From IMG/VR virus record IMGVR_UViG_3300045988_173726, positions 128,001 through 192,000 of that record: DNA of 64,000 nucleotides; one strand, 5' to 3'. Below the pieces are notes generated by a model. It saw only the letters and a program-made list of their open reading frames with translations, was not told where the DNA came from and ran no database searches. Of the stretch, positions 38,441-56,119 are shown piece after piece. The position numbers and the translations under genes were made by a program. Within the stretch, counting starts at the first letter, position 1, and each line of letters begins with the position of its first letter. This stretch comes from a virus.

Positions 38441-40831
38441 ATGCAGAAGCGTAAGTACAGGAGACTGGCTGGCGTGCTTGGTGTTGGTTTATCAGTGACA
38501 TTCGTGTTTACGGGTTGTGGTAAAAAGTATGACTACTCAAAGATTCCGTATGCGAAGATGCTGACAAGGCAGGAAGTGATAGATGACTATGCAAAGTCTT
38601 TAAGCTATAAGTCAATCGCGGAGAAGGGTGTTAGTAAGACAAAAATCCAGTGGAATGAAGTCCCGTCCAGTATTACGGAGAAGCTGTGGACAAAGACACA
38701 GCAGATTATCGAGACAAATCAGTTAAATGCGGGCTATGAGGACGATATGTCCGTTGCTGTGCATGACTATGTGAAGTTACTGCTGGATGATTTGGTTTTA
38801 ACGAAGCCAGACGGCGGTAATTACACTTATACAGAGGCAGAGAATAACGGCTACTACTTTGTAACGGTTAATTTCGGCACGAAGTTAAACGGGCAGGGTA
38901 CTTTCAAGGACGCGGCGAATTATCTCGGTATAGACGGGTTTATCATTTCGGATGCAAACGGAAATCCTGTGCTAAATAAGGAGTTTGTGGACGGCGCTTA
39001 TGGTATGTCGAAGGTAAACGCGGCTAGAAGCGCGGCGAGATTAACACCGTATACGATATTTGCGGATGCGAACTTAACATACGCGCCGCAGACGCAGACG
39101 GTAGTAGCGCAGGATACGCCTACAACGGATGCAGAGGGTAATGCAATAGTCAGTACGGATATAGGCGGCGGTAGCGAGGCGACAACGGGTAGTACAGAGG
39201 GTGAGAGCGCGGCAACGGATAATAGCGGTAACGGCGTAGGTTTATCGGACGATAGCTCGGATGATAACTCGGGTTACAGCTATAGCGGTGGCACAGAGAC
39301 AGCGGGCTATAATAATCTGTTTGCAAATACGATAAGACAGGTCGAGTATGACAATAAGTATATCAATAGCGTGATAGGCTCTTCGACTACAGGAATACCT
39401 GTCGTCCCGCCAGTCGGAATGGTTTATAACCCTGTGGAGACGAACGGGGAGCTTTCTGGGTACGGAATCTTTAACGAGGGAAGTTACGGTTTAAGGGATT
39501 TCGGGTATGCGAGAGAGGCTTACGACACGGGGAAGATTAGTTTAACTTTCGTGTTTAAGCAGAATGCAGACGATAGAGACAAGTTTGACTACAAGTATTG
39601 CTATATTAACAACTACGAAACGAACATCGAAATGAAGGATAGCGGAGTTACGCTGTCGGATGATATTAACACGCAGTTAGACCAGACGATAGAGCGCATA
39701 GATAGAGCGTTTTGTAATGAGGATATAGCAGGCTTAATGAATAAGTCAAACATTGAGCCGTCAGACCTCGGTATCCGTTTAGCGGAGCTTAGGACTTCGA
39801 GCAATATTTTGACTTTTTCAACGCATAGGGTAAAGACGCTAGCGCGTAAGGGAAAGCAGTATTTGGTAGAGCTTGAGCGGACGACAGAGGAGAGCGCGAA
39901 GGGCTTTGGAAATACGGCGAAGTATAAGGACAAGTATTACGCGGTGATACGGCAGAACGGAACGGATTTCGTGTTAAACGACATCGTGTGGGTAAGTAGA
40001 GAGCTACTAAGAATCCCAGAGCCAGAGGCAGATGACGCAATCACGAGGCGTTTAACTTCTCTAAACCTTGCGGGAGCGGTAGACGAGAGCGTAAAGCCAG
40101 CAATCAATCAGCTTCTAAACAGAGTTTATAACGCGACAAACAATGTCGGCTACTACACGCAGTACGATAAGAACGGAAATGTCGTGGTAGACAACGGAAT
40201 CCCGATGTATGGCTTAGACGACCAGTTTGACAGCAACAAGGAGCTGTTAAAGTCGGCTAGGAAAGAGTATTTAGAGTCGCAGATAGTGAATCGTGCGCAG
40301 TCGCATATGAATTCTTCGGAGTGCGTGCTAAAGGGCAAGGTAGTGAGCTGGATAGACGGTTACAGCGACCAAGTTGAGCTTACGACCGAGGAGTTTTACG
40401 ACTTTAGCAAGATTAAGAAGGGTATATATGTAAAGAACTACTATCTTGTGAGCCATTACGGTAATCGGTGGGTGATTGACGATATTGTTCCTATCGAGGA
40501 GAAAGAGGTAGAGAGCAACGAGTACGAGGAGAAGGTAAGTCTTTTCAGTAATGTAGATAACAAGGTCGAGATAATTGCTACGGATAAAGCGGTAGAAGAG
40601 GATAATAGCAGTAAGAGCGAGTCTGCTACCGAGAAATCAGATAAGAAGCGTGGCAAAGACGCGACCGAGGCAGAGAGTAAGAAGGCTACGACCGAGGGAA
40701 AGAGTAGAGTCGAGACTTCGGTAACGGGAGCGGATAGCGAGACGAGTGAGGGCTTAAAGCGGGATGCCAGAGAAGTAACGACTGTGGAGAGCAGTTTATC
40801 TGGAAGCGAAGCGGAGAGTGAGACAAACTAA
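38441..40831 (+). CDS. Large lipoprotein, function unknown
   Basis: 796 aa from ATG 38441 (SD AGAGAGGGAAAG). The track GTG 38411 overlaps the upstream gene. Lipobox FTGC in LAGVLGVGLSVTFVFTGCGKK. Acidic S/T/E-rich C-terminus. Confidence 0.7.
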   Translation: MQKRKYRRLAGVLGVGLSVTFVFTGCGKKYDYSKIPYAKMLTRQEVIDDYAKSLSYKSIAEKGVSKTKIQWNEVPSSITEKLWTKTQQIIETNQLNAGYEDDMSVAVHDYVKLLLDDLVLTKPDGGNYTYTEAENNGYYFVTVNFGTKLNGQGTFKDAANYLGIDGFIISDANGNPVLNKEFVDGAYGMSKVNAARSAARLTPYTIFADANLTYAPQTQTVVAQDTPTTDAEGNAIVSTDIGGGSEATTGSTEGESAATDNSGNGVGLSDDSSDDNSGYSYSGGTETAGYNNLFANTIRQVEYDNKYINSVIGSSTTGIPVVPPVGMVYNPVETNGELSGYGIFNEGSYGLRDFGYAREAYDTGKISLTFVFKQNADDRDKFDYKYCYINNYETNIEMKDSGVTLSDDINTQLDQTIERIDRAFCNEDIAGLMNKSNIEPSDLGIRLAELRTSSNILTFSTHRVKTLARKGKQYLVELERTTEESAKGFGNTAKYKDKYYAVIRQNGTDFVLNDIVWVSRELLRIPEPEADDAITRRLTSLNLAGAVDESVKPAINQLLNRVYNATNNVGYYTQYDKNGNVVVDNGIPMYGLDDQFDSNKELLKSARKEYLESQIVNRAQSHMNSSECVLKGKVVSWIDGYSDQVELTTEEFYDFSKIKKGIYVKNYYLVSHYGNRWVIDDIVPIEEKEVESNEYEEKVSLFSNVDNKVEIIATDKAVEEDNSSKSESATEKSDKKRGKDATEAESKKATTEGKSRVETSVTGADSETSEGLKRDAREVTTVESSLSGSEAESETN

Positions 40832-40844
40832 GTAAATGCGCGGT

Positions 40845-40893
40845 ACAAGTTGCAATCTTAGCAGTAAAAAGATTGCAACTTGTATTTATTTAC
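40845..40893 (+). terminator. Strong rho-independent terminator
   Basis: Perfect 15-bp stem: ACAAGTTGCAATCTT (40845-40859) with AAGATTGCAACTTGT (40869-40883). 9-nt loop, then ATTTATTTAC. Confidence 0.75.
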
Positions 40894-40901
40894 GGTATAA
40901 T
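40873..40901 (+). promoter_or_regulatory. Sigma-A promoter overlapping the terminator 3' arm
   Basis: TTGCAA (40873-40878), 17-nt spacer, TATAAT (40896-40901), 48 nt upstream of ATG 40949. Confidence 0.65.
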
Positions 40902-40948
40902 ATAGCTTAAATGGGGCTTGTAGGATTAGCTATGGGAGGTGTAAAGCG

Positions 40949-42592
40949 ATGTCAGTCAGAAGTCCGATAATACGAGACGGAATGTATCGCGGGACGATAA
41001 CGGACGCGCACGCCTCGGGTATCTTAAGGGTTCGGGAGAGTAAAGAGATAGCGGGGATGAAGCATATGGTGTTTGATTTCCCGTTAGAGCTTGTGGAGCG
41101 TTCGATACGGGAAGAGAAGAGCATACGGAAGATAGTGCGGGAAGAGGGAATCGACTATCGGCAGTATTTAGGAACATTGAGGTCGTATCAGACGGTAGGC
41201 GCGGCGTTTATGTATATGTCGCCTCGGAGTATGATAGCGGACGGCGTAGGTCTTGGAAAGACGATAGAGATAGCGGCGGTGCTAAACTACTTGCGTGGGA
41301 AAGGGCAGATGAGGCGGTTTTTAATGGCGGTCGAGAACTCTGCAATAAGTCAGACGCAGTATGAATTAACGCGGTTTACGGGTATGCGGATAGTGGCGCT
41401 GTCTGGCGAGTCCAAGCATATGCAGAAAGAGATAGACACGATAGACTGGAACGATGTGCAGGGGATAATCATAAAGCACAGTTCGTTGAAGTCAGATAGT
41501 TTGTATCGGTGGCTTGCGAAGTATGCAAAAGACGATATGACGAATGGAATGTATGATGTGTTTATTTTGGACGAGAGTTCTGTGATAAAGAACGATAAGA
41601 CAAAGACATATCAGTACACGAAGAACCTGTGCGCGTATGCGGACAGGGTGCATTTTATGAACGCTACGGCGTTTGACAAGAATATCATGGATATTTACTA
41701 TCAGATAGACATGATGGACGAGAACTTACTGCCGAAGCGGTGGAGGATAGAGCAGGATTTCTGTAATCACAGTTCAAAGCTTTATTGGTCTAAGGGAATT
41801 AGAGATGACGGAAAGTGGGGCGGGATTCAAAAAACTGCGCGGAGTATAAGTTCATATAAGAATCAAGATGCTTTTAGGCGGCTACTGCAACTTGTGTATT
41901 TCGGGCGGTGCAAGAAAGATGTAGGGTTAGACAGACCGAATATCTATAAGGTTTACGAGGTAGAGCCTACAGCGGCGCAGTTAAACGCGATAAAGGCGGG
42001 GTATCGGTATAACGAGGTTTTGAATAGTCCTTCTTGTATCGAGGAGCTTAAGATAAAAGAGAGTGCAAGCACGGTACCAAAGATAGCGCGAGTATGTAGT
42101 TTATTAGAGAACGACTTTGCAGACAGCAGTGTTATGATTTATTGCTTTCACATTGCGGCGCAGAAAGCCTTAAAGAAAGAGTTAGACGCTCGGGGCAGGA
42201 GATGTGTAATCCTAAACGGAGAGGATAGCAGTAAGGATAAGGATGCGAAGCGGGCAAAGATTATAAGCGACTTTAATAGCGGGGTTTATGACACAATAAT
42301 CACGAATATTAAGAAGTCACTAAATTTGCATGGCGGGGATGTCTGTATTTTCTACAGTATGAGTACAACAGTCTCGTCTATGGAGCAAATACGGGGCAGG
42401 ATAGACAGAAATGTAGACGACAGGGTTAAGACTTTTATCTTGCTTTTGTATGTGGGTACGGATGAGTACAGGTTTTTCACGGATACGGTAAAGAATCGAG
42501 CGAAGTCAGCGAGAGAGCTTACGGTAGACGCAGAGACAGCGATAGATTATTTCATTGAGTCAATGAAGGGAGACAGAAATGAAGCGGAGTAG
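40949..42592 (+). CDS. SNF2/SWI2-family helicase-like ATPase
   Basis: 547 aa. SD GGGAGGTG. LRSYQTVGAAFMY. Motif I ADGVGLGKT. Motif II FILDESSVIKN. C-terminal helicase domain with SMEQIRGRIDR (motif VI-like). Confidence 0.75.
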   Translation: MSVRSPIIRDGMYRGTITDAHASGILRVRESKEIAGMKHMVFDFPLELVERSIREEKSIRKIVREEGIDYRQYLGTLRSYQTVGAAFMYMSPRSMIADGVGLGKTIEIAAVLNYLRGKGQMRRFLMAVENSAISQTQYELTRFTGMRIVALSGESKHMQKEIDTIDWNDVQGIIIKHSSLKSDSLYRWLAKYAKDDMTNGMYDVFILDESSVIKNDKTKTYQYTKNLCAYADRVHFMNATAFDKNIMDIYYQIDMMDENLLPKRWRIEQDFCNHSSKLYWSKGIRDDGKWGGIQKTARSISSYKNQDAFRRLLQLVYFGRCKKDVGLDRPNIYKVYEVEPTAAQLNAIKAGYRYNEVLNSPSCIEELKIKESASTVPKIARVCSLLENDFADSSVMIYCFHIAAQKALKKELDARGRRCVILNGEDSSKDKDAKRAKIISDFNSGVYDTIITNIKKSLNLHGGDVCIFYSMSTTVSSMEQIRGRIDRNVDDRVKTFILLLYVGTDEYRFFTDTVKNRAKSARELTVDAETAIDYFIESMKGDRNEAE

Positions 42593-43634: not shown

Positions 43635-43670
43635 ACGGGATATACTTTCTGTATATCCCGTTTTTAGTTT
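43635..43670 (+). terminator. Rho-independent terminator
   Basis: Perfect 11-bp stem: ACGGGATATAC (43635-43645) with GTATATCCCGT (43651-43661). TTTCT loop, then TTTTTAGTTT. Confidence 0.8.
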
Positions 43671-43748: not shown

Positions 43749-45866
43749 ATGGAAAAGCGGTTTTTAGCGGTAGCCGTTTGTCGAGGCGAGGACGGTAAAT
43801 ATCTAGGCTTACGAGTCGTAGACACGAAAGACAGAGTAGCACGGGCAGTAGATGCGAATATCCAGAGTATTCTAACGGTCTTAAAGGGCGGGGATGCTTT
43901 TTATAATTTAAGGCTTGGGGAGGACGGTAAGGTAAAGGTGACGGGGATGAATCCCGCGCGTATGCCAGTTATCGACTTAACGAAGAAGCCGACCGAAGAG
44001 GGGTATTGTAGTGATAAACAGGCGAAGATAGTGTTTGAGGATACGGGTCAGTATAACTTCGTCTGCTATGAGTGGTCGGGTAAGCGAGTCGTGCTTACGG
44101 GTTCTACTCTTGAGGAATATAGGGCGCATCTGGTAAACGATAAGGTTTATGTGACGGCTACGCCGTCCAACGCGCCAAAGGTGGCAGTAAGCCTTAAAGG
44201 TAACGGCGATAAGGTACAGGCGAAGTCCTCACATAGAACGTCAGAGGAGAGAGATAAGTTAATCGAGGAGGCAGAGAAACTTCGGAAAGCGGAGAAAGAG
44301 AAGCGCGGTGAAGATGAATCTGGGAGTCTCGGTGTTTTCCGTGTAATAGACAGCCCGAATACGATACGGAGCGGGGGCGATTTTCGGACAACCGACAATC
44401 TTTACACTTCGCAGATAATCGGTGTAGACGGCGATATGACGCTCGCGCAAAAGTATAAGACAGTTTACGATGACGGGAGTGAGGTAACGGTAGACTTAAA
44501 GTTTATGAAGGTCGCGAACGTGATTAGCGAGTATTGCGGATATTACGGCTCACTGTATCGAGCGATTGAGCATAAGTTTACCGATAAAGACGAGATAGTT
44601 CCGACTGCGGGAGCGTGTCCAGAGTATATTATTTTCAATGTAAAGTATTGTAACAGCCTTACTACGCCAGAGTTAGTGTTTATCCTGCTACATGAGTTAT
44701 CTCATATCGCTCTACAGCACGCTCTGCGTGGTAGAGGAAAGAATCACGATGTTTTTAACATTGCGGCAGACCTGATTATCAATAAGCAGATTTGCGAAGA
44801 GTATAAGGTTTCGCCTACAGGTGGCGTTTCAAAGCTAAGTGGGGAAGGTCAATCAGAAGATAAGTGCGGAATCGCGTTCCCAGACGGCGGTTTGTATAGC
44901 GCGGCGGTAGACTTAACGAAAGACACAGCAGAAAGTATCTATGAAGAGCTTATAAAGACCGCAAAGAAGAGGAAAAATAATAGCCTAGACGGAGATAACA
45001 TGCACAGGGGTACTTCCAAGGGCGACCAGAATAGTGGCGGCGGTGGAAGCTCTGATGGAAATACAAGCGGTAGTGGTGGAGACGGAGAGGGTGAAATCAC
45101 CGAGGTAGACTTTAGAGGGCAGAAGATAAGTTTACCTGCGTCTTTGCGAGATATTGCGGAGTCAGCGCGAGATGCGTCACTGGATAATTCGAGCCTAAAG
45201 GATAAACTAGACGAAGTAGCGCGGCGTGCTATGGTGCATTATAAGCAGTTTGGGCAGGGGCATAGCAACTTAGCGAGGGATATAGAGAAGGTGCTTGCAC
45301 CGCGCATACACTGGAAGAAGTATTTGCAGAAATACCTAATCGAAGCGTCACAGACTTTCGACACTTTTTCGTCTCCAGAGCGAAGATACTTAAGTAGAGG
45401 AATGACATTGCCTGGACCTCGGCATACAGACCCAGATACCATCAAAGGCTTAAAGGTTTGTATAGACACTTCTGGAAGTATAAGCAAAGAGGATTTAGGT
45501 ATCGCGCTCGGACAGGTAGCACAGCTTCTAAAGAAGTATAAAGCGGACGCAGAGGTAGTTTATTGGGACACCGAGGTAGCGGCTACGGGAAAGTTTTCGG
45601 ATATAGCGAGCCTTTATAAGCACGAAGCGAAAGGCGGGGGTGGAACGGATGTAAACTGTATCTTTGAGTATTTCAACTCTAAGGAGTGCAAAGATAAGCC
45701 GAAGTTAATCCTAATCTTCACGGATGGCTATTTCGGGAAGGTAGACATGCATCTGGTGAATCGACTGCACTGCAAGAAGAACATCATTTGGGTAATAAAT
45801 GACGATAACCTAGTAGATTTCAAGAGGCACATTGATTTCGGCAAGGTTGCCGTTTATAAGAACTGA
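43749..45866 (+). CDS. Domain-X + putative Zn-metallopeptidase (DUF2201-like) + vWA domain protein
   Basis: 705 aa. N-terminal FLAVAVCRGEDGKYLGLRVVDTKDRVARAVDANIQSILTVLKGGDAFYNLRL matches the paralog family at 47142-50331. HEXXH in FILLHELSHIALQH. Gly/Ser linker. vWA MIDAS VCIDTSGSIS, GGGGTD, LIFTDGY. Confidence 0.75.
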   Translation: MEKRFLAVAVCRGEDGKYLGLRVVDTKDRVARAVDANIQSILTVLKGGDAFYNLRLGEDGKVKVTGMNPARMPVIDLTKKPTEEGYCSDKQAKIVFEDTGQYNFVCYEWSGKRVVLTGSTLEEYRAHLVNDKVYVTATPSNAPKVAVSLKGNGDKVQAKSSHRTSEERDKLIEEAEKLRKAEKEKRGEDESGSLGVFRVIDSPNTIRSGGDFRTTDNLYTSQIIGVDGDMTLAQKYKTVYDDGSEVTVDLKFMKVANVISEYCGYYGSLYRAIEHKFTDKDEIVPTAGACPEYIIFNVKYCNSLTTPELVFILLHELSHIALQHALRGRGKNHDVFNIAADLIINKQICEEYKVSPTGGVSKLSGEGQSEDKCGIAFPDGGLYSAAVDLTKDTAESIYEELIKTAKKRKNNSLDGDNMHRGTSKGDQNSGGGGSSDGNTSGSGGDGEGEITEVDFRGQKISLPASLRDIAESARDASLDNSSLKDKLDEVARRAMVHYKQFGQGHSNLARDIEKVLAPRIHWKKYLQKYLIEASQTFDTFSSPERRYLSRGMTLPGPRHTDPDTIKGLKVCIDTSGSISKEDLGIALGQVAQLLKKYKADAEVVYWDTEVAATGKFSDIASLYKHEAKGGGGTDVNCIFEYFNSKECKDKPKLILIFTDGYFGKVDMHLVNRLHCKKNIIWVINDDNLVDFKRHIDFGKVAVYKN

Positions 45867-45883
45867 TTAAGAGGAGAGAAGCT

Positions 45884-47128
45884 ATGGCAAATTATAATAT
45901 GATAACTGTGAAGTTAAGACAGTTTAGGGAGATGGTGCGTAAACAGCTTGAGGCGAAGTTGTATACGCCTATACTTGCACTCGGAAAGCCGGGAGTAGGT
46001 AAGACGGAAACGCTGTCAGCGCTTGCAAAGGAGCTTGGAATCGGGTATTGCGAGTTCCGAGTAGCGAGTATGACACTGGTGGATGTGCTGGGTATTCCGC
46101 ATGAGATTGAGCAGGAGAAGGGCGGGATGGTAACGCTGTGGTCGCCAAACGGCTTATTGCCGAATGAGGAGAGAGACGGAGAGGTAGGTATACTGGCGCT
46201 AGACGAGATAACAGCGGCGAAGCCAGAGATGAGAACTACGCTCTTACAGTTGCTTGACTCTAGGCGACAGGTCGCGTCCTACAAGTTTCCAGAGCATTGG
46301 GTTTGCATTGCTATCGGTAACGATGACGAGTCGGGCGCGGATTATCAAGGTATCGAGTCCCCGTTTATCGGACGATGCGGCTTAAAGATGCTTCTTGACC
46401 CAGACTTTGATGACTGGAAGCCTTGGGCGTTACAGCACGATATAAACACGACCATTCTTGCGTTTATCGAGAGTGATAAGAGTAAGTTAAACACCTTTGA
46501 CCCGAGTGCGGATGTCGAGGTTTATGCGTCACAGCGAGATTGGGCTAACTTTAGCAAGTTTCTAAATCACTTAGAGTCTTGTAACGGTGGCGCACCGCTT
46601 GACGAAATGACGGTATCGCTGTTTGCGAAGGCTTCTGTGGGAGAGAAAGTTGGACCAGAATTCGCAATGTATTATAGATATAATACGCAGATAGTATCTG
46701 CGGAGGCTCTGTTAAACGGAACGGCAGAGGTAAACTTTGCAGGGCTGGATAACGCAAAGTTTTATCTATTACAGAAGCATGTCAATCAGATTATCATAGA
46801 CGACTTAAAGGGAACTTACGATGCAAACCTTTCTTACAGGTTTGACGAGAAGATAAAGATTAGTGACGATGTTAAGCGTCATCTAACGAATCTGATTAAG
46901 TTTATCGTTGAGTTACCTTCTTCCGAGTGGCGAGCAGTTACGATAACAGACTTAACACATACTGTTTCTGCGTCTATCGGAATATTCTACGATGTAGATA
47001 CTAACCAGACAGGTGTGTTTAATGACAGGACATTGAGGGATAAGTTTAAGAAGGCGTTTGACGATATTGCGCTCTATATGAGTCAGCAAGAGGACGCGCT
47101 TACGCTTGCAAAGAGCCAGAAGAAGTGA
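45884..47128 (+). CDS. MoxR/AAA_5-type AAA+ ATPase
   Basis: 414 aa. SD AGAGGAGAG. Walker A LGKPGVGKTE. Walker B ILALDEITAA. Sensor region VCIAIGND. Classic genomic partner of vWA proteins. Confidence 0.75.
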   Translation: MANYNMITVKLRQFREMVRKQLEAKLYTPILALGKPGVGKTETLSALAKELGIGYCEFRVASMTLVDVLGIPHEIEQEKGGMVTLWSPNGLLPNEERDGEVGILALDEITAAKPEMRTTLLQLLDSRRQVASYKFPEHWVCIAIGNDDESGADYQGIESPFIGRCGLKMLLDPDFDDWKPWALQHDINTTILAFIESDKSKLNTFDPSADVEVYASQRDWANFSKFLNHLESCNGGAPLDEMTVSLFAKASVGEKVGPEFAMYYRYNTQIVSAEALLNGTAEVNFAGLDNAKFYLLQKHVNQIIIDDLKGTYDANLSYRFDEKIKISDDVKRHLTNLIKFIVELPSSEWRAVTITDLTHTVSASIGIFYDVDTNQTGVFNDRTLRDKFKKAFDDIALYMSQQEDALTLAKSQKK

Positions 47129-47141
47129 GGAGGGGGAAAAC

Positions 47142-48248
47142 ATGGATGCAGTATTCATTGTAATCAATAAGCGAGACACCGAGCAGGGTGCGGTTTATGC
47201 GTTTGCGGCGCTTGCGAATGACGGGGTAGGATGTGACTATAAGCCTTTGTGGAAGGGTGAATGCCAAGAGAGTGATTTAACGCCGCTTGTAAAGTATGCG
47301 CGTAGCATCGGAAGCACGCATCAAGTGAAGTTTCTGAACTTCAAGTTAAAGGACAAGAAGGTTTTGCCAGTCGGATATAGCTTTGAGGTGTTTAAGAGGG
47401 AGAAAGCGAAGCCGAATGTTTTGCTTAACGAGGTTAGGTCAGAGGAGACAGGGGCGTTACTAGGATATACGATATATGTAACGGATTCGGGTAAGGTAGC
47501 AAATGTATCCTTGGTTAAGCTTATGCCTGCTGTTAAGAAGTATCAAGAGAGCGGCTTAAAGTTAACCCATAACGCAATGTATATCGGCGCTACAAAGGAC
47601 AAGAAAGAGTATCTAAAGCAGTTTATCGAGGGAAGTATTCCGAGTAGGTCTGTAAAGACAGGGCAGAATACGAAGGTAGACGCAGAGAAAGCGGAGATGT
47701 CTAAGGAGAAGATAGACAGTAACGCTAAGAAAGAGAGCGCGGCGAGTAAGTTTACGGCAGAGCAGATGGCGGTATTACGGAAGGCGCATAACGAGGGTGT
47801 AAACTATAAGAAGTTTGCGAAGCCAGAGCTGTCGCCCGAGCAGATGGAGATGCTTTACGAGATAGAGAAGCTTGGAAGGCTTGACAGCAGATATTTAGCA
47901 TTCCCTCGGTATAGTAGAGAGGTGCTTGAGTTTTACTATTCAGAGCTTAAATTAAAGGACGATTTAAGTTGCTTTGTAGAGACAAGAAACGGTAAGCGAG
48001 TGATGGCGAGCGAGTATAACATCGCGCAGATGTATCAGATTCGTCTCGGAAGCCTTATGGGAATCGACTATCACAGGTATATGAATCCGAAGCTTAGTGT
48101 TAGAGAGATGTCGAACATAAGAGAGGCATTGGAGTCAAACCTTTGGGTCGGCGCGAGTGAGTTTATTTCTGGAAGTGAGCAGTCGGGTGTTCTGATAAAG
48201 ACGCTTAATTTCGGGAAGAAGCATAAGAAGCGCGGGGGAAAAGAGTAA
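47142..48248 (+). CDS. Domain-X paralog 1 with C-terminal helical-repeat extension, function unknown
   Basis: 368 aa from ATG 47142 (SD GAGGAGGGGG). The track start 47106 overlaps the MoxR gene. Block 1 HQVKFLNFKLKDKKVLPVGYSF. Block 2 VLLNEVRSEETGALLGYTIYVTDSGKVANVSLVKLMPAVKKYQESGLKLTHNAMY. C-terminal repeats FTAEQMAVLRKA / LSPEQMEMLYEI / YNIAQMYQIRLG / LSVREMSNIREA. Confidence 0.65.
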   Translation: MDAVFIVINKRDTEQGAVYAFAALANDGVGCDYKPLWKGECQESDLTPLVKYARSIGSTHQVKFLNFKLKDKKVLPVGYSFEVFKREKAKPNVLLNEVRSEETGALLGYTIYVTDSGKVANVSLVKLMPAVKKYQESGLKLTHNAMYIGATKDKKEYLKQFIEGSIPSRSVKTGQNTKVDAEKAEMSKEKIDSNAKKESAASKFTAEQMAVLRKAHNEGVNYKKFAKPELSPEQMEMLYEIEKLGRLDSRYLAFPRYSREVLEFYYSELKLKDDLSCFVETRNGKRVMASEYNIAQMYQIRLGSLMGIDYHRYMNPKLSVREMSNIREALESNLWVGASEFISGSEQSGVLIKTLNFGKKHKKRGGKE

Positions 48249-48270
48249 GGTTTTATGAGGGGGCGTTATG

Positions 48271-48298
48271 AGGGGCGGTTAAACCGCCCCTTTGATTT
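48271..48298 (+). terminator. Rho-independent terminator candidate
   Basis: AGGGGCGGT (48271-48279), TAA loop, ACCGCCCCT (48283-48291), then TTGATTT. Confidence 0.6.
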
Positions 48299-48319
48299 AG
48301 GGGATTTTGGGAGGAGAGT

Positions 48320-48946
48320 ATGCGTTATATATTTTTAATCACGGGTATACGGACGGCAGGGGTAGATACGGTTTATAGGCTTGCGATAGTGCGCAAATCT
48401 AGTGTTGTAGACGACTTAAAGTACGAAATCATGTCACACAGCAAGACCTTGCGAGCAACCAATGGGATTTTAATGGGTGAAAGTTATAACATGCTAAGTA
48501 ATATGCTCGCGTCTATCGTAAAAGCAAAGGAGTCGTTCACTTTTGCAAATTTCGAGTTAGACGAAAAAACGCGGACGATAGTGCCTTATGGTAACGGGTT
48601 TGCGAGTGGCGGGGTATTGGTAGCCTTGGATGACTTGCGGGTAACAGAGCAGGGGGCTAAGGTAGGTTATACAGTGTATAACCTAGAGAGCGGGACGATA
48701 GAGTTTATACGGGTAGCAGATTTGCTTTCTGTGGCGATAGCGTATGACGCTAGGGGGCTATGTCTCGTGCAGAATTTACGGTTTCATAAGTCAAAAGAGG
48801 GCGAGATAAAGAAGTTAGCATGCTTTTGGCACAGTAGGGAGCATTACGGGGTAGCGGTTATACCGAAGAAGGCGCATGGGGTGCTTGGTTTTGAGCGAAG
48901 CTCCCGTATGATAACAGAGGGACTAATGCGTAGGTTAGAGATGTAA
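48320..48946 (+). CDS. Domain-X paralog 2, function unknown
   Basis: 208 aa. SD GGGAGGAGAG. Block 1 ESFTFANFELDEKTRTIVPYGNGF. Block 2 VLVALDDLRVTEQGAKVGYTVYNLESGTIEFIRVADLLSVAIAYDARGLCLVQNLRF. Confidence 0.65.
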   Translation: MRYIFLITGIRTAGVDTVYRLAIVRKSSVVDDLKYEIMSHSKTLRATNGILMGESYNMLSNMLASIVKAKESFTFANFELDEKTRTIVPYGNGFASGGVLVALDDLRVTEQGAKVGYTVYNLESGTIEFIRVADLLSVAIAYDARGLCLVQNLRFHKSKEGEIKKLACFWHSREHYGVAVIPKKAHGVLGFERSSRMITEGLMRRLEM

Positions 48947-48961
48947 ACGGAGGAGTTTATT

Positions 48962-49714
48962 ATGAGACAGGCAGAGTTCGTGATGACAGGGCTTAAGGCG
49001 CTTGATAGAGAGTCTTACTACTCGGCGAAGGTAGGGGTATTTGAGCATGAGGCAGGGGAGATAGAGAGGAAGCTCATACGGGAGTTTGAGACTCGGATAG
49101 CTTCTAGCGATAATAGAGAGTATTTTGAGATAAAGGATGAGAATGGGGTTTATCGCCTCGCGTCAGCGACAGAGGAGTTTAAGCGGACGCATGAAGTAGT
49201 GTGGGTAAACTTTAGCGATAGCTATTTGCCACATGAGGGGAAAGCGCCTTACGGGGTGGGTAACGGGATATACTGTAATGTAAGGGATTTTGTGGCATTA
49301 AGCCGCCTCGGGGCGTATATCGTGTTAATGGGTAAAATCGAGTCATCGGACGGGTATCTGCTTGGATATACAGCGCTCTCTACGGTAACGGGAAAAGTTT
49401 TTAATCTGCCGTGTGTAGGCGTTTATCCGATAAAGGACATTACGAATAGGTATCGTCACTGGGAGTTTTGTAGTAACGGAAGATACATAGACGGAGAAAT
49501 CCCATATTTAGAGTCTAGCGTAGAGTATACGATAGGTGGTATGGGGATAGGGATAGAGAGCAAGGCGTTTTACTATTTAGACACGGTTAAGCTCACAGAG
49601 AAGCCAGTATATAGCGAGATGTTTTCAGAGTTTACGGGGGAGATAGAGGCTATCTTAGAGGGGCTTCCAGAGACAGACTATAAACGCGGGGCAGAGCTTA
49701 AGGTAGAGAGGTAA
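48962..49714 (+). CDS. Domain-X paralog 3, function unknown
   Basis: 250 aa. SD ACGGAGGAG. Block 1 HEVVWVNFSDSYLPHEGKAPYGVGNG. Block 2 YIVLMGKIESSDGYLLGYTALSTVTGKVFNLPCVGVYPIKDITNRYRHWEFCSNGRY. Confidence 0.65.
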   Translation: MRQAEFVMTGLKALDRESYYSAKVGVFEHEAGEIERKLIREFETRIASSDNREYFEIKDENGVYRLASATEEFKRTHEVVWVNFSDSYLPHEGKAPYGVGNGIYCNVRDFVALSRLGAYIVLMGKIESSDGYLLGYTALSTVTGKVFNLPCVGVYPIKDITNRYRHWEFCSNGRYIDGEIPYLESSVEYTIGGMGIGIESKAFYYLDTVKLTEKPVYSEMFSEFTGEIEAILEGLPETDYKRGAELKVER

Positions 49715-49722
49715 GGGGTAGG

Positions 49723-50331
49723 ATGCGAGCTTCTTCGGAGGAATTACGACTAATTATTACAAACTGCAAGGGAGAATCTTCGAGAAAGCAATTCACAGTA
49801 AAGGTCTTTACGGGGAGTCCTTTTAAGGGCGGGTATAAGTTAGCGGATGAGTTTACAGGCGGCGGTAGTTATCTTAGGTGGCGGATAGAGAGGTTGCGGG
49901 CTACGGGGATAGTCGTTTGTGTAAACTTTAGGCTTCGGGAGCGGTATCGAGAGGTAGAGGTTAAGCCTGTCGGGAGAGAGTTTACGGAGGCGGCGGGTGT
50001 CGCAGTAAATCTAATCTTGTCCTTAACAGGGAGTAGTAGAGACTGGGCAGGGGTAGCGCTTTATCTTCGAGAGACGGGGAAAATCGTTTATGTGCGGCGA
50101 AGCGAGGCACAGGAGACAGAGAGAGCTTATCGGGATTCTGGGAGAGTATTCGCCCAAAACCTCTGTTTGCGGAAGAAGTGTGATGGCACGGAGACGCTCT
50201 GTCGGGTGCAAGGCGCATCTCGGCGGGTTCAACTCTTAAAGCCTGCAAAGGATTTCGAGCTAGATAAAATTTGGAATGCAAGCAGTAAAGACTTTACAAA
50301 CTTTTTGAAATGTGATAAAAGAGAAGGGTAA
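49723..50331 (+). CDS. Domain-X paralog 4, function unknown
   Basis: 202 aa. SD AAGGGGTAGG. Block 1 GIVVCVNFRLRERYREVEVKPVGREF. Block 2 VAVNLILSLTGSSRDWAGVALYLRETGKIVYVRRSEAQETERAYRDSGRVFAQNLCL. Confidence 0.6.
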   Translation: MRASSEELRLIITNCKGESSRKQFTVKVFTGSPFKGGYKLADEFTGGGSYLRWRIERLRATGIVVCVNFRLRERYREVEVKPVGREFTEAAGVAVNLILSLTGSSRDWAGVALYLRETGKIVYVRRSEAQETERAYRDSGRVFAQNLCLRKKCDGTETLCRVQGASRRVQLLKPAKDFELDKIWNASSKDFTNFLKCDKREG

Positions 50332-50348
50332 CCCCTTCTTTTTTATTT
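50321..50348 (+). terminator. Rho-independent terminator overlapping the stop codon
   Basis: GAGAAGGG (50321-50328), TAAC loop, CCCTTCTT (50333-50340), then TTTTTATTT. Confidence 0.6.
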
Positions 50349-50406
50349 AGAATCGCATGAGGAGTTGGAAAGAATTGCGGGGGTTAGTGGCATGGAGGTC
50401 TGGAAA

Positions 50407-52122
50407 ATGGTTGTTCTTTGTCGTATCGGAGCTAGTAGTCTAAATGTAGTGCTTAATGATGGGGAGATAGAGTTTATTCCCGAAGAGGAGTTAGGCGAGT
50501 CGGTAGCTAACGCGGGTTTGCCTACTGCCGAGGGGGATAAGAGAGTTGTATTTGAGGTAGACGGTAAGTTTTATATTGTAGCAGTAAGGGGTTTTGAGGC
50601 TCGTGTGTACCTGTCTGACGCTCGGTATATTAACAACTCTCGGGTAAAGGAAGTATATGTTTATGATGGAGCTAATTTTAACCGAACAGAGCGCGAGGAA
50701 GTAGAGTCTCCGTTTCGATATAAGTTTAAGCCGCTTGAGATTAAGACAAGCGACTATAGAGACGGGGAAATCGTTTATAAGGTCGGGGTATACAAGATAG
50801 CGGTCGAGAGTGAAGAGGTTAAGGAGACAGGTAGTAAAGTAAGCCTGTTTGATGACGAAACGGAAGATAGAAGCGAAGCGATAGTAGATATTCCGAGAAA
50901 GTATAGCGAGTATAAGAGCGACTGCAAGCTGTGTCACGGGACAGGGAAGGCAATAAACAAGTTAGGATATGTAGTAGAGTGTAGCTGTGGTAGAGCGCTC
51001 TTTGAGGAGCGGGAGCGACTTAGGGAGCTTGCGGAGAGGAAGCCCGTATTCAGCGTTCCGAAGTCGGTAAGTGAGATAGCGGTGTTAAAGGGTCTTGTGC
51101 CGAGCGAGCATGAGAACATTGTGTACGATTCGGAGTATGTTTATCGCCGTATCACTGGGTCTATCGGAGGGGATAGAGTAGTAGGGTTTGAAAACTACGA
51201 TAAAGCGGTGTGTTCGATAATCAATGCTTGCAGGACAGGGACAAAGGTGCGGCACAGTTACTTACTGGCGGCAGACACGGGGTTTGGGAAAAAGAGTTTC
51301 GTGTATACTTGCCTAAAGTATCTTTTGGGTAGGGATGTGAGAGTTCCTAAGTATCTGTCGCTGTCAGAGATAGGCTTTCTTTCAGAGAAGCGAGTGAAGC
51401 AAGCAAAGGCGTTAAATGTGCCGACCTACTATTTTCGGTATAACGAGAGTGACAAGTTTAGGTTTATCTGGGCAGAGGTCAGTAAGAAAGCGGAGAGGCG
51501 GCTTTTAGAGATATTAGCGGAGCGTTCTGCTGGGGTCGGAATCAGTTTATCGGAGAAGGAGTTCAGTGACTTAAAGCACGAGGTCGATTATGCGGTGCTG
51601 GAAGAGGTGACAGGGTTATATAATGAGGCGATAAAGGGGTATGACAGGAACGACACCGAGGGGATAGCGGCGAAGGTAAACGAGGTATTAGCGAAGCAGT
51701 TAGATACTTACGAGGACATCTTGAATGCGCCGATATTGTTTACATATTTTGCAGAGTATACGAACATTCAGTACGAGGTAGAGGTCTTGCATACGCTATT
51801 AACGGTCAGAGGAAACAAGTGTTTGCCGACTATCGTGCTAATGGAGGACAGTGTGCGAAAGTTCGGCAATATAGTCGGCTACAGTAACGGAGCAGAGGGA
51901 GACATAGAGGTAGATGCGATTAGAGCCTTGTCAGACCACTGGGGAAGTATGCTAAGTGAGAACAGCACTTTCTTTATGGAGAACTTGAATGCGAAGAAGG
52001 TAGCGGAAGATATGGCTGGAGAATCGAATTATAAGCGGATGATATATGTAAACTGCTACAAGACTAGGGATTACTTAAAGGCGCTAGTCGGAAGTCGAAA
52101 GAAGCGAGGTGGAAAGGCGTGA
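50407..52122 (+). CDS. Domain-X-like N-terminus + DnaJ-type CxxCxGxG zinc finger + P-loop NTPase-like domain, function unknown
   Basis: 571 aa from ATG 50407 (SD GGAGG 8 nt upstream; ATG 50392 and TTG 50365 are alternatives). VVLCRIGASSLNVVLNDGEIEFIPEEEL resembles block 2. CKLCHGTGKAINKLGYVVECSCG. Walker-A-like LLAADTGFGKKSF, where GKK replaces GK[ST]. Confidence 0.55.
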   Translation: MVVLCRIGASSLNVVLNDGEIEFIPEEELGESVANAGLPTAEGDKRVVFEVDGKFYIVAVRGFEARVYLSDARYINNSRVKEVYVYDGANFNRTEREEVESPFRYKFKPLEIKTSDYRDGEIVYKVGVYKIAVESEEVKETGSKVSLFDDETEDRSEAIVDIPRKYSEYKSDCKLCHGTGKAINKLGYVVECSCGRALFEERERLRELAERKPVFSVPKSVSEIAVLKGLVPSEHENIVYDSEYVYRRITGSIGGDRVVGFENYDKAVCSIINACRTGTKVRHSYLLAADTGFGKKSFVYTCLKYLLGRDVRVPKYLSLSEIGFLSEKRVKQAKALNVPTYYFRYNESDKFRFIWAEVSKKAERRLLEILAERSAGVGISLSEKEFSDLKHEVDYAVLEEVTGLYNEAIKGYDRNDTEGIAAKVNEVLAKQLDTYEDILNAPILFTYFAEYTNIQYEVEVLHTLLTVRGNKCLPTIVLMEDSVRKFGNIVGYSNGAEGDIEVDAIRALSDHWGSMLSENSTFFMENLNAKKVAEDMAGESNYKRMIYVNCYKTRDYLKALVGSRKKRGGKA

Positions 52123-52194
52123 AGCGGCTATGGTAATTTATCAGTAGCATAGCGGTAGAGAGCAATTAACACAAGTACACGCCTAAAAACAAAG

Positions 52195-52470
52195 GTCATA
52201 ATAGTCAGCTAGACCTACAAAGAAATTTGTCGTACACAAGGGCTTTTATAAACTGTAATTAAATAAAATTTTCAAGCCTAGTCGTATCCGAGGCAGGATT
52301 CAATTTTATAAACTTCTCAAAGCAAGCGAAATACCGATACTGAATTTCGGGGTGAACCCGTAGGTAAAATCGACATACCAGACACCGAATTTTAGCCTCT
52401 TAAAAAGAGGGGGTTTCGGAGAAGGTCTTTTCGGGGGCGGGGCGTTTAAGGGCGGCGAGCGGATAGCACG
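52195..52470 (+). repeat. Non-coding element, copy B (paralog of 1-300), upstream of the Ter-type operon
   Basis: See copy A for the shared blocks. The whole 52123-52540 gap (~418 nt) has no credible ORF. It includes small hairpins (CGAAAT..ATTTCG at ~52327-52349; CCTCTT-AAA-AAGAGG at 52396-52410). Confidence 0.6.
52227..52254 (+). promoter_or_regulatory. Weak candidate promoter inside element copy B
   Basis: TTGTCG (52227-52232), 16-nt spacer, TAAACT (52249-52254). Positionally equivalent to 69-96. Would give a ~280-nt leader. Confidence 0.25.
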
Positions 52471-52540
52471 AGTTGCCCATTACACTAGTACACGCTAGGC
52501 AGTCGGTTTGGGAAATTTAGGAGAGAGGAGAGGGAGGAAA

Positions 52541-54130
52541 GTGGCAATTAGTAATCCAAGTTTGAAAGCGTTACTGCAACAGCTCTGGAAAACGCCGTCC
52601 GAGCGTTTAGGGCTACTGCGTCAGACAGAGCCGTATAAGATTTGCTATATCGGTTCAGACTGTAGCAGTGCGAGAGAGTATAACGATGTTTTAGCGACTT
52701 TTAAGGAGAAGGCAGGAGAGGATAGCCGTCATACGCTGTTGTTTGATAACGAGATTCCGTTTAATGTGGATTTAGACTTTATCGGGACGGTAAAGCAGGG
52801 TTTGGCTACGGTAGATTTAACTGCAATTAAGGACAGCGATGTGGTAATGTTTGCGGATGCGAGCTATAATCACAGGTTTGTCCAGAAGTTGCAGGGGGTA
52901 GTCAATAAGATTCTGTCGAACGAGACATTTCCGAACGAGTCTGTCAAAGCAAACTTCATAACGAGGCTTCTCTTAGAGGTTTATACGCTTGTCGTGCCGC
53001 TTGAGAGAGTAGACGAGTATAGCACGCCGAATAAGTGTATCTATTACGGAAGTATAGAGAGGTATGCGGTATATTTCCTAATGCTACTGGCGGGTATGGG
53101 GTTTGACATCGTGTATATCAACCCGTTTGAGAAGCCAGATTGCTTAGATTTGCTGGGTGCAGAGCTCTCGGTAAGGAATACGCGGTATCAGATAGGTTCG
53201 CTTTCCGATAGGGCTTCAAAGGGACAGGCGATTCATCAGATAGACTCCGTGACGCTCGGATTTAGGCAGGAAGTAGAGAAAACAGTCTTTACGGATTCGG
53301 GTTTATTTAGACAGTGGCAGTTTAAGCATGGCGGGACGACAGAGAGTATGTTTCTGAACGCTACGGTCGAGGATTTAGAGAATAACTGGGACGCAGAGGC
53401 TAGAGTTCGGCAGGGTTTTGGGGTAGTCGGGAAGAAAGTAAAGATACCTACACTTTTCTACGAGGTAGACGGAGTTCACAGCGATGATAACGACTACTGC
53501 GCATTTGTCGGGAAGTTTGTCGGCGGGAAAGACACGCTTTTAATTTATGGTAAGCCCGAGGAGCTTCTGGATATAACGATTTCAGAGGATGATGTTCTAA
53601 AGATTTCGTTTTGCCAGAAGGGAGACGGAAGTTTTGACAGAGATATGCTAAAGGCGTTGCCGTTTTATCGGTATGCGCCGTATAACGATGACACAGAGGA
53701 CTTTATCTTAGACAAGATAAACGAGACGCTTTCAGATAGCACTCTGTTTTCGCGTCCCATTGTAGATAAGCGGGATAAAGTCGAGTTTGTTGCGATGTGC
53801 TTGCAGTTAAACAAGAAGTTAATGTATATGATAGACACATTTGACTTTCCTTTTGGGATTCCGAAGGTAGTTGCGTTTCTTGATAACGAGAGTTCGCTTA
53901 GTCAGCAGACTCCGTATATCTTAGGTTTTTTGCACAAGATAGGCTTTGACATACTTGTGTTAGCCCCTGCGGGGCTTTCAAATCTTTCGACATATGTGGA
54001 TAGGGGGCGATATAACTGTGTGAGATTAGCGGAGATGAAGTATGATGTGACCTTTGATAAGGTTTCCAGTCCAGAGGGCAGGAAGAAGTCGGCAAAGAAA
54101 GGTGTGCTTGCAAGTTTATTTAGTATTTAA
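52541..54130 (+). CDS. yceG: YceG-like protein of Ter-type clusters (assignment by size and synteny)
   Basis: 529 aa from GTG 52541 (SD GGAGAGGGAGGAAA). The track TTG 52508 precedes the SD. Sits directly upstream of telA, as B. subtilis yceG (~537 aa) precedes yceH. I cannot verify family membership from sequence motifs alone. Confidence 0.5.
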   Translation: MAISNPSLKALLQQLWKTPSERLGLLRQTEPYKICYIGSDCSSAREYNDVLATFKEKAGEDSRHTLLFDNEIPFNVDLDFIGTVKQGLATVDLTAIKDSDVVMFADASYNHRFVQKLQGVVNKILSNETFPNESVKANFITRLLLEVYTLVVPLERVDEYSTPNKCIYYGSIERYAVYFLMLLAGMGFDIVYINPFEKPDCLDLLGAELSVRNTRYQIGSLSDRASKGQAIHQIDSVTLGFRQEVEKTVFTDSGLFRQWQFKHGGTTESMFLNATVEDLENNWDAEARVRQGFGVVGKKVKIPTLFYEVDGVHSDDNDYCAFVGKFVGGKDTLLIYGKPEELLDITISEDDVLKISFCQKGDGSFDRDMLKALPFYRYAPYNDDTEDFILDKINETLSDSTLFSRPIVDKRDKVEFVAMCLQLNKKLMYMIDTFDFPFGIPKVVAFLDNESSLSQQTPYILGFLHKIGFDILVLAPAGLSNLSTYVDRGRYNCVRLAEMKYDVTFDKVSSPEGRKKSAKKGVLASLFSI

Positions 54131-54150
54131 CGCGAGAGAAGGAGAAGAGT

Positions 54151-55311
54151 ATGCAGTATAACGAGTTAGTTCCCGTAGAGCTTACGAAGCAGGAAGTTGC
54201 AGAGAGCAAGGAGATGTTGGATGCTCCCGAGGCGTATAAGGAGAAGTTAAAGGCTCTGCCCGAGGTGCAGAACTTAACGAATGAGATTAAGATTGATTTT
54301 AACAATGCGAACGGCACAGGAATGTCGATTCTCCAGTTCGGAAAGAAGCCCGCAGAGGAAATCGAGAAGATGTCTAACGAGATTCTTAACTATGTGAAGG
54401 TACCGACCGACACAGAGGCGGCTGAAATGATGAAGCAGCTTGCAAGGGTTATGAATCGGTTTGACATTAAGGAAATCGAGAAGATTAACGATATTCCTAA
54501 GAAAGAGAGCTTCTTTGACAAGATTCGGAAGCGCATGATGGAGAATCTTGATGCAGTAATCCAGAAGTATGACAATATGGGGAAAGAGGTAGACCGTATC
54601 GGTCAGTTGCTTCGAGGCTTTGAACAGCAGACGATTGATAGTAATGTGACGCTCACGAAGATGTGGAAAGCGAATCAGAACTATTTTTGCGAGCTTGAGA
54701 AGTATGTAGTAGCTTGCGACTTGGCAGTAGACGAGCTTACGCTTTATCGTTCTCGGGTGGAGGCAGATAACGAAACGCTGTCTCCCGATATGAAGAGTAT
54801 CCGTTTAGGTCAAATTGACATGGCTGTAAACGAGATTAAGAAGCGCCAGTACGACTTATTGCAAGCGGAGATGGTGGCAAGAATGACCGTGCCGATGCTC
54901 CAGAATATGCAAGTTACGAACATGAATCTGGTGCGAGAGATTAACGCGGCGTTTGTAGTGGGTCTGCCGATTTTCAAGCAGAATTTGGCGCAGGCTATTT
55001 TGCTTAAGAGACAGGCGATTGTAGCGAACTCGGTCGGGCAGTTTAGGGAAGCGCTTAACACACAGCTTGAGCAGAACGCGAATTACAGCGCAAAGACTGG
55101 AGCAGAGGTAGCAATGCGTTCTATGGACGGATTGTTTGACATGGATACGCTTAGACGGGTTTATCAGACGGTCAAAGAGGGAACTGCGAATGTGCAGAGA
55201 GCGATGGAGACGCAGATGTTGTCGAATGCGGAGAATGCAAAAGAGATTGAGCGCATGAAGCTTGAGACGAGGCAGGGTTCGTTGTCTGTGACAAAGCAAT
55301 ATGGCAAGTAA
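54151..55311 (+). CDS. telA: TelA/YceH-family toxic anion resistance protein
   Basis: 386 aa. SD GAAGGAGAAG. All-helical. N-terminal IDFNNANGTGMSILQFGKKPAEEIEKMSNEILNYVK matches the TelA family opening (..vlqFG..aq..l..fsd.iL..v). Ter gene context. Confidence 0.75.
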   Translation: MQYNELVPVELTKQEVAESKEMLDAPEAYKEKLKALPEVQNLTNEIKIDFNNANGTGMSILQFGKKPAEEIEKMSNEILNYVKVPTDTEAAEMMKQLARVMNRFDIKEIEKINDIPKKESFFDKIRKRMMENLDAVIQKYDNMGKEVDRIGQLLRGFEQQTIDSNVTLTKMWKANQNYFCELEKYVVACDLAVDELTLYRSRVEADNETLSPDMKSIRLGQIDMAVNEIKKRQYDLLQAEMVARMTVPMLQNMQVTNMNLVREINAAFVVGLPIFKQNLAQAILLKRQAIVANSVGQFREALNTQLEQNANYSAKTGAEVAMRSMDGLFDMDTLRRVYQTVKEGTANVQRAMETQMLSNAENAKEIERMKLETRQGSLSVTKQYGK

Positions 55312-55396
55312 AGCAGTAACGGAGAATACCTGTTATAAATCTTATGTACACACAGAGTATGGCTAATAAATTTATTTAAGGAGGAGTAGGGCTGTT

Positions 55397-56104: not shown

Positions 56105-56119
56105 GGGAGGATACGAGAT

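Follow-up and report, generated by a model that had tools for sequence, protein, structure and literature searches.

Gene pairs encoding a MoxR-class AAA+ ATPase and a protein that joins a zincin metallopeptidase to a von Willebrand factor A (vWA) domain are widespread in N4-like phages, jumbo phages and plasmids. To our knowledge neither the client nor the purpose of the pair, which is found in hundreds of these genomes, has ever been shown experimentally. The locus described here raises the question of what such a pair acts on. It occupies positions 43749-52122 of a 64,000-nucleotide stretch of DNA (positions 128,001 to 192,000 of IMG/VR record IMGVR_UViG_3300045988_173726), referred to below as the window, and contains seven co-oriented genes on the + strand, G1 to G7. 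G1 and G2 code for the pair, G3 to G6 for four proteins with a common domain of ~170 N-terminal residues that we name ND, and G7 for an orphan protein. A prior inspection of the letters alone (the sequence-only reading) had correctly described the seven co-oriented genes, and proposed a novel system in which one unnamed domain recurs six times, in the vWA protein, the four paralogs and the seventh protein. We find that the G1-G2 pair is already known, and that what is new is the ND family, its strict coupling to a long form of G1, and a module common to both. The window's clade thus offers the first candidate partners of the pair, which combine a fixed position with a module shared with the vWA protein, and the question of what this chaperone/protease acts on becomes directly testable.

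Co-occurrence of the long-form vWA protein and ND

A search for the peptidase motifs in IMG/VR, JGI/ENA metagenomes and GTDB genomes yielded 178 loci. In 25 of these the G1 homologue is of a long form that carries an N-terminal domain (G1N, 43749..44258 in the window), and in the other 153 it is of a short form, the version present in N4-like phages, 121Q-like jumbo phages and many plasmids; G1N is kept in all long-form homologues and is absent from the 153 short-form ones. An ND gene lies one gene downstream of G1 in 24 of the 25 long-form loci, and since the contig of the twenty-fifth ends 237 nt after G1, all 24 informative loci have it. No ND gene is present at any of the short-form loci, 102 of which have at least 3 kb of downstream sequence. 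The order vWA, ATPase, ND is fixed in the long-form loci, and the same arrangement is recovered starting from ND, as relatives with enough flanking sequence always directly follow a MoxR-like ATPase gene, itself preceded by a DUF2201 peptidase-vWA gene. G1, G2 and G3 are found together in all of ~11 sequence-diverged lineages, and this trio is constant while the flanking genes vary widely from one lineage to the next. The block is thus a real conserved unit that co-occurs outside this element, as had been proposed.

A module shared by G1 and ND

Profiles of 22 ND sequences and 10 G1N sequences were compared using hhalign. The second of the two conserved segments that the sequence-only reading had aligned by eye (block 2) matches residues 1-52 of G1 with a score of 24.7 (P 2.2e-5, probability 76%). 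In 200 column shuffles the mean score was 7.4 (standard deviation 1.8, maximum 14.8), with none of the 200 near the real score, and the reversed control scored 8.0. ND and G1N are also collinear over 112 columns with a score of 30.4 (P 4.7e-4, z about 9), compared to a mean of 11.7 in 200 column shuffles (standard deviation 2.0, maximum 16.9) and 10.1 for the reversed control. The real scores therefore stand 9-12 standard deviations over the shuffles, at 12-24% identity across 33-112 columns. The signal emerged only once diverged homologues were added, and hhalign returned nothing when ND from the four window paralogs alone was compared with the N-termini of G1 and G7. A word-indexed search with the G1 N-domain alignment returned one fragment.

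The strongest signal falls in the register of block 2 itself, and the claim that this segment opens the vWA protein is supported at the profile level: the first ~50 residues of G1N repeat the block-2 unit of ND, and there is probably a second block-2-like copy at residues ~95-140 of G1 (P 1.2e-3). In this clade G1 has thus acquired a module at its N-terminus that shares homology with a section of ND. Taken with the strict co-occurrence, the profile match bears out the proposed link between the vWA protein and the paralog array. The same is not true of G7, where block 2 had also been placed. ND against the G7 N-terminus gives P values of 0.12-0.2, which are not significant, and the sole link is weak and transitive through a ~565-aa protein of an unrelated family (C10) that holds the same position in other lineages; the N-terminal hairpin of G7 resembles the N-terminus of C10 weakly (P 0.008 over 12-21 columns), and C10 is itself similar, at P about 1e-3, to the units of G1 and ND. 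A profile-profile relationship among the segments therefore holds for the four paralogs and G1 and is not supported for G7, and the supported copies number five, not six.

The metallopeptidase-vWA protein and its ATPase

G1 (43749..45866, 705 aa) is a long-form zincin metallopeptidase-vWA co-chaperone that consists of an N-terminal domain (residues 1-170), a charged linker, the peptidase and the vWA domain, such that the zincin HEXXH domain is N-terminal to the vWA-like domain in a single polypeptide. The peptidase motif HELSH is at residues 315-319, and the motifs DTSGS (573-577), GGGTD (630-634) and TDG (658-660) provide a complete DxSxS...T...D metal ion-dependent adhesion site (MIDAS; D573/S575/S577/T633/D659). 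G1 matches Pfam DUF2201_N ("putative metallopeptidase"; 1e-24, 88 bits, cut-off 23.2), Pfam DUF2201 ("VWA-like"; 6e-14, 52.6 bits, cut-off 26.4) and phrog_1314 (2e-66). The HEXXH and MIDAS assignments of the sequence-only reading are thereby confirmed both by residues and by Pfam, and the catalytic and MIDAS residues are invariant over four lineages at a mere 25% identity. Over residues 232-705 G1 can be aligned with homologues from N4-like and 121Q-like jumbo phages and with the "VWA-like domain-containing proteins" of plasmids.

G2 (45884..47128, 414 aa) begins 17 nt after G1 and is a MoxR-class AAA+ ATPase with a lineage-specific C-terminal domain. It had been named as a MoxR/AAA_5 ATPase, and its AAA_5 match of 25.7 bits is indeed above the gathering cut-off of 22; it also matches phrog_1297 (1e-49), and its closest PDB match is midasin (5e-6). 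Walker A (GKPGVGKT, 34-41) and Walker B (LALDE, 104-108) are intact. By these matches G1 and G2 are the known MoxR/vWA chaperone/co-chaperone pair with a built-in protease. The pair cannot be counted as novel, since it is already covered by Pfam DUF2201_N/DUF2201 and PHROGs 1314/1297, and Iyer et al. 2021 (Viruses 13:63; PMC7824862) have described a MoxR-vWA chaperone/co-chaperone pair whose vWA protein bears a fused metallopeptidase at its N-terminus.

The ND family

The four ND genes stand in tandem. G3 (47142..48248, 368 aa) is the ancestral form, G4 (48320..48946, 208 aa) has a short tail, G5 (48962..49714, 250 aa) has insertions and a short tail, and G6 (49723..50331, 202 aa) is the fastest-evolving gene of the block. 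ATG 47142 is the most likely start of G3, rather than TTG 47106. The strings that the sequence-only reading quoted for its two conserved blocks are all present, and its alignment by eye of four tandem paralogs is upheld by BLASTP (G3-G4 2e-8, G3-G5 2e-4, G4-G6 2e-4, G3-G6 1e-3) and by a joint G3-G6 profile that recovers all four at 1e-46 to 1e-63. The invariant features of ND are N-F, G-(Y) and the N of the (Q/H/S)N motif, all within those two blocks.

ND is a new, previously undescribed domain family. An exhaustive HMMER search of 1.84 billion cluster representatives with the four-paralog profile returned just 10 proteins, namely the four own clusters, a fragment of 50 aa, and five remote relatives (313-363 aa), and a second search added nine more. 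ND has no match in Pfam, PHROGs, NCBIfam or PADLOC, which likewise return nothing for full-length G3-G6 or for G7, and the ND profile does not match PDB sequences. No ND relatives were found in isolate phages by tblastn. An AlphaFold2 model of G3 made from a 20-sequence alignment (pLDDT 78, pTM 0.67) has a beta-rich ND (residues 1-171) with two beta-beta-beta-alpha units, a disordered segment at 175-200 and a helical region at 206-359. Foldseek of this model against PDB gave no significant neighbour (best E 0.055, TM <= 0.15), and against BFVD just two uncharacterised proteins, both from one uncultured phage, at E ~1e-3. The domain therefore has no solved structural neighbour, and the assertion that it matches no known family stands.

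In G3, ND (residues 1-171) is followed by a linker (175-200) and a C-terminal domain (206-359) with F[ST]xEQMxxL...P.LSxEQM repeats. Most ND relatives, including the five distant ones, share this architecture of ND, linker and helical EQM-repeat domain, the exceptions being P0050/P0051 and a 579-aa protein of lineage L005, which have another C-terminal region. Firmicute mobile elements also encode uncharacterised proteins with EQM repeats. By tblastn the G3 C-terminal domain matches 14 places in Finegoldia magna pFMC (L185, NC_010371.1), of which one (33343-33750) was examined; the pFMC region 25343-41750 contains more than 10 tandem hypothetical genes a few kb from a DpnD/PcfM gene. In MT835532 an EQM-repeat protein is fused to BspA-type leucine-rich repeats (LRRs) and is encoded beside a VirD4-like gene.

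Evolution of the block

Evolutionary rates were determined by comparing the window with 18 near-identical sister contigs (L001, L007-L013, L087-L096). The ratios of non-synonymous to synonymous rates (dN/dS) are 0.09 for G3, 0.16 for G4, 0.10 for G5 and 0.22 for G6, and because of these values we conclude that the paralogs, which are intact across the contigs apart from some copies of G4, are functional genes under purifying selection. Amino-acid identities among the sister contigs are 98-99% for the flanking genes and G2, 95% for G1, 96% for G3, 92-93% for G4 and G5, 77% for G6 and 91% for G7, with G6 spanning 73-85% across contigs whose flanking genes are 98-99% identical. In non-synonymous rate the paralogs exceed the flanking genes and G2 by a factor of 3-20. 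Synonymous divergence (dS) in G5, G6 and G7 (49723-52122) is 0.39-0.63, approximately twice that of neighbouring genes (~0.25), which suggests allele exchange or recombinational replacement among near-identical elements. G4 is truncated in some sister contigs.

Because most ND relatives share the G3 architecture, the G3 form is ancestral and G4-G6 are a lineage-specific triplication of shortened copies. A paralog array is thus not a feature of the system, contrary to the sequence-only reading, as sister lineages have a single ND gene. G7 is found in three of the ~11 lineages (the window lineage, L187 and L191), and the ancestral block of the window's clade was thus G1-G2-G3-G7. The three extra ND copies occupy the slot between G3 and G7 in the window lineage. 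In L187 (11282-14892) the corresponding slot, ahead of the G7-like gene, is filled instead by an unrelated insert that encodes a DUF4869 protein, a P-loop (GLSGSGKT) protein and a methyltransferase-like protein with an NPPY motif, which suggests that the slot is an insertion hotspot. In L191 the G7 homologue is directly after a single ND gene. L005 (8229-12111) contains three tandem ND paralogs; the 579-aa ND protein has repeats homologous to the C-terminal domain of the neighbouring ATPase (BLASTP 2e-10 and 4e-5), and the C-terminal region of P0050 resembles this domain by eye. In L005, then, fusion independently connects ND proteins with the ATPase.

Other genes accompany the trio in related lineages. 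A Peptidase_C39_2-like cysteine peptidase is encoded immediately upstream of the long-form vWA gene at L107 8809-9453 and at equivalent places in L003, L005, L097, L101 and L125, and in these lineages the gene after ND often codes for a small LRR_5 protein of BspA type. Neither gene is present at the block in the window lineage.

G7

The likeliest start of G7 (50407..52122, 571 aa) is ATG 50407, with its GGAGG ribosome-binding site, rather than TTG 50365, from which the open reading frame can also be read. The motifs that had been reported in it, CxxCxGxG and GFGKKS, are present, although the description of the former as a DnaJ-type zinc finger does not hold. The sequence CKLCHGTG...ECSCG forms a Cys4 knuckle (C173, C176, C192, C194) with one CxxCxGxG and one CxC, compared to the four CxxCxGxG repeats of the DnaJ domain; G7 does not match Pfam DnaJ_CXXCXGXG, and a G7 profile against PDB finds only the Ydj1 zinc finger at E = 1. 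The deviant P-loop GFGKK[ST] at 292-297 has an extra Lys relative to Walker A GxxxxGK[ST], and IVLMED (476-481) is a putative Walker B. There is no family or structure match for G7 in Pfam, PHROGs, NCBIfam, PADLOC or PDB, and no homologue in phage and plasmid collections. The L187 homologue (35% identity over 440 aa, E 1e-70) retains both CxLCHGxG...ECSCG and GFGKK[ST]. A single-sequence AlphaFold2 model has a pLDDT of 33.7, too low for fold comparison. Two candidate identities were rejected: orthology to C10, with which there is no profile similarity, and a DnaC/DnaI-like helicase loader, considered on motif layout, for which there is no sequence support in Pfam or PDB.

Predicted transcription units

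Because hairpins with U-tracts stand before G1, after G3 and after G6, three transcription units are predicted, G1-G2-G3, G4-G5-G6 and G7. The terminators that the sequence-only reading placed after the third and sixth genes are both there. The first (48270..48297, -19.3 kcal/mol) is terminator-like with an interrupted U-tract (UUUGAUUU) and parts the conserved trio from the extra paralogs; the second (50322..50349, -15.5 kcal/mol, z -4.6) is an intrinsic terminator with a U-run after a stem that overlaps the G6 stop codon. An additional hairpin precedes G1 (43635..43661, + strand as are the other two), with an 11-bp stem followed by a T-run (-17.0 kcal/mol, z -7.1), and is predicted to close the upstream unit such that G1 opens a new one. 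The whole window is co-oriented with strongly positive GC skew.

A proposed role for ND and its rivals

What can be said beyond domain identity, homology and co-occurrence is inference. The presence of part of ND at the start of the vWA protein suggests a docking tag, and our tentative preference, held at somewhat less than even confidence, is that ND serves as a homotypic adaptor, through which ND-tagged proteins are coupled to G1 and G2 for ATP-dependent remodelling or cleavage. ND would dock such proteins onto the G1 N-terminus by a logic like that of effector-associated domains (EADs), and docking would bring their variable C-terminal parts beside the MIDAS site and the HEXXH peptidase. 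ATP hydrolysis by a G2 ring might then remodel the docked protein or license its cleavage or release, with the disordered linker after ND (residues 175-200 of G3) as a plausible cleavage site, and G4-G6 could be alternative or competing clients or regulators. The homotypic adaptor is supported by the module shared between G1 and ND, by the strict co-occurrence and fixed gene order, by the L005 fusion, and by the terminators that bracket G1-G3. If ND proves to be a client-docking adaptor, a client or partner would thereby be identified for a widespread chaperone/protease pair.

Several observations weigh against a docking role. The G1-ND stretch with the best P value is short (33-39 columns), is significant at profile level only, and is below the 90% probability level of hhalign. 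The ND fold has no characterised neighbour, so that the term adaptor is argued from architecture alone, and the invariant polar residues N66, N144 and G108-Y109 could instead mark a ligand-binding or catalytic site. In hundreds of phages and plasmids the short-form pair manages without ND, which is therefore an add-on whose purpose may have nothing to do with client delivery. We can also put forward a bolder form of the adaptor reading, albeit as an unlikely one, in which ND is an EAD-like homotypic coupling domain, with a fold unseen in PDB, that makes the pair a programmable processing machine of giant conjugative elements of gut Firmicutes; any ND-bearing protein would first dock on the vWA protein and next undergo ATP-dependent remodelling or cleavage, with the fast-evolving paralogs as interchangeable clients. 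If this is so, the machine could mature or release proteins for transfer, establishment or competition.

Three other explanations need to be weighed against the homotypic adaptor. Iyer et al. 2021 (PMC7824862) propose assembly and proteolytic processing for the jumbo-phage pair and cite the tail-assembly precedent of Acidianus two-tailed virus (ATV), and by extension G1 and G2 could be an assembly chaperone and maturation protease for a virion or for a conjugation or aggregation apparatus, with the ND proteins as structural or scaffold subunits. The location of the block just downstream of a pXO16-like transfer region with VirB4-like and FtsK-like ATPases and a helicase is in keeping with this, as is the filing of the element as viral in IMG/VR, and paralogous small beta-rich proteins are typical of structural modules. 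We nonetheless consider an assembly role unlikely, in that PHROGs show no phage structural family in the window, none of the ND relatives has a structural annotation, the gradient of rates within the lineage and the copy-number changes would be unusual for core structural proteins, and a module common to an enzyme and its partner is better explained by docking. Another rival is a conflict system, in defence or in anti-defence and establishment, akin to the NTP-dependent vWA-MoxR ones, where the ND paralogs would act as sensors or decoys that diversify and a target would be switched on or eliminated by G1/G2. Rates are raised relative to the flanks in G4-G7, and above all in G6, yet dN/dS is well under 1. 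The SNF2 helicase, Ter cluster and Pnkp-like RNA repair gene nearby, and the L187 slot, whose DUF4869, P-loop ATPase and NPPY methyltransferase genes look like a defence-island insert, would suit such a system, and a duplicated adaptor fits EAD-like logic. PADLOC and NCBIfam, however, have no match for G1 or G3-G7, and the block has neither a recognisable effector domain nor any of the third components of the vWA-MoxR ternary conflict systems described by Kaur, Burroughs, Iyer and Aravind 2020 (eLife 9:e52696), while lytic N4-like phages have the short form as a pair of early genes of housekeeping-like character; we judge a conflict role to be quite improbable. The sequence-only reading had seen here the pattern of a conflict or chaperone system; we find nothing that connects the block with defence.

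Finally, the ND genes could be syntenic passengers with no functional coupling to the pair, and the G1-ND similarity a chance match of beta-hairpin-rich segments. The long-form loci all belong to one broad clade of giant elements, so that co-occurrence could reflect shared ancestry, and the similarity is short and of low identity. Order and adjacency persist despite complete turnover of the flanking genes, however, and the G1-ND scores rise far above shuffles while the reversed controls are flat; with the independent fusion of ND to the ATPase C-terminal domain also speaking for coupling, a passenger status is very unlikely.

The host element

Human-gut assemblies repeatedly contain near-identical contigs of 214-272 kb, and IMG/VR files the element as a viral genome, with lengths of 116-268 kb for its uncultivated viral genomes L007-L013. 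The window lineage is an element of ~270 kb within a related group of uncultured elements of ~190-360 kb, little-known elements to which the present findings draw attention. The region at 22-43 kb is syntenic with the transfer region of pXO16, and the block is directly downstream of it. The genes at 19282-42592 code for a 985-aa protein with endolysin-like and choline-binding repeats and a 1702-aa protein, followed by the ATPases and helicase: a VirB4/TraG-like ATPase (32545-34695; 31% identity with a hypothetical protein of pXO16, E 2e-75), an FtsK/SpoIIIE-like ATPase (34866-37139) and the SNF2 helicase (40949-42592). Megablast of the block against plasmids and phages gave no match. We considered that the element is a phage and rejected this in favour of a plasmid-like reading, as the PHROGs scan of the window found no structural matches and the VirB4-like protein had no phage match. 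From its gene content the element looks like, though it is not proven to be, a pXO16-type giant conjugative plasmid, and its viral listing may be a misclassification or reflect a phage-plasmid. MOB-suite types pXO16 as non-mobilizable, and this transfer system is therefore poorly covered by present typing.

A 385-nt gap (52123-52507) separates G7 from a YceG_bac gene; it is the longest non-coding gap in that part of the window, and Rfam yields nothing for it, either at the gathering threshold or with E <= 1. The block is directly followed, at 52508-60185, by a Ter-type stress cluster (YceG_bac, 7e-47; TelA, 4e-56; two TerD matches and a third paralog) and then a P-type cation ATPase, and at 60303-62429 there is a gene for a 708-aa Pnkp-like RNA repair protein that combines an AAA_33 kinase, a metallophosphatase and a T4-type RNA ligase 1. 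In related lineages PRTase_2/TRSP and StiP/PELOTA_1 genes are ~9 kb from the block of those lineages (L002). The element also has genes of its own for a family-A DNA polymerase fragment or domain (DNA_pol_A, PolA, 4e-26) at 371-1552 and a DnaX/clamp-loader-like AAA+ protein (DNA_pol3_delta2, 2e-31) at 14001-15437.

Comparison with known systems

Among the closest known systems is the phage and plasmid MoxR/metallopeptidase-vWA pair, which has the same two proteins in the same order with the same catalytic and MIDAS motifs. The block differs from it in the extra ~170-aa N-terminal domain of G1 and in the ND protein or proteins that always follow, neither of which is seen in the 153 short-form loci. 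In classical MoxR-vWA systems such as ATV p618 (MoxR)/p892 (vWA), RavA-ViaA, CbbQ-CbbO and NorQ-NorD, a MoxR ATPase and a MIDAS-bearing vWA adaptor remodel a specific client. These pairs contrast with the block in that they are without a peptidase, have known clients, and are not known to have an ND-like partner.

The comparison is also instructive with the ternary conflict systems of Kaur et al. 2020 (eLife 9:e52696), in which homotypic coupling by EADs was inferred from a non-enzymatic domain on a core component together with adjacent stand-alone, lineage-specific paralogs. The block likewise has a MoxR-vWA core with a domain present both on a core component and in stand-alone paralogs. However, no Pfam family of the third components of those systems (VMAP, inactive STAND/iSTAND, FtsH, beta-propeller) is found in G1-G7, and PADLOC finds none; Pfam EAD models have no match to G1 or G3-G7 at E <= 0.1, and the bpMoxR model scores 15.3 bits, below its threshold of 27. 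The vWA protein of the block has an N-terminal zincin and not C-terminal effectors, and its host is a mobile element of gut Firmicutes, whereas the ternary systems belong to multicellular bacteria. Because the third components and EAD families are absent, the block is not a member of the ternary systems, with which it shares architectural logic alone.

At the level of the whole element the nearest comparison is pXO16 (pBTHD789-1, NC_018516), the 350-kb conjugative megaplasmid of Bacillus thuringiensis sv. israelensis. Although pXO16 has no detectable G1, ND or G7 homologue, it shares with the window the succession of a giant protein, a VirB4-like ATPase, FtsK/SpoIIIE and a helicase in the same order, and in the stretches examined the genes of both are on one strand.

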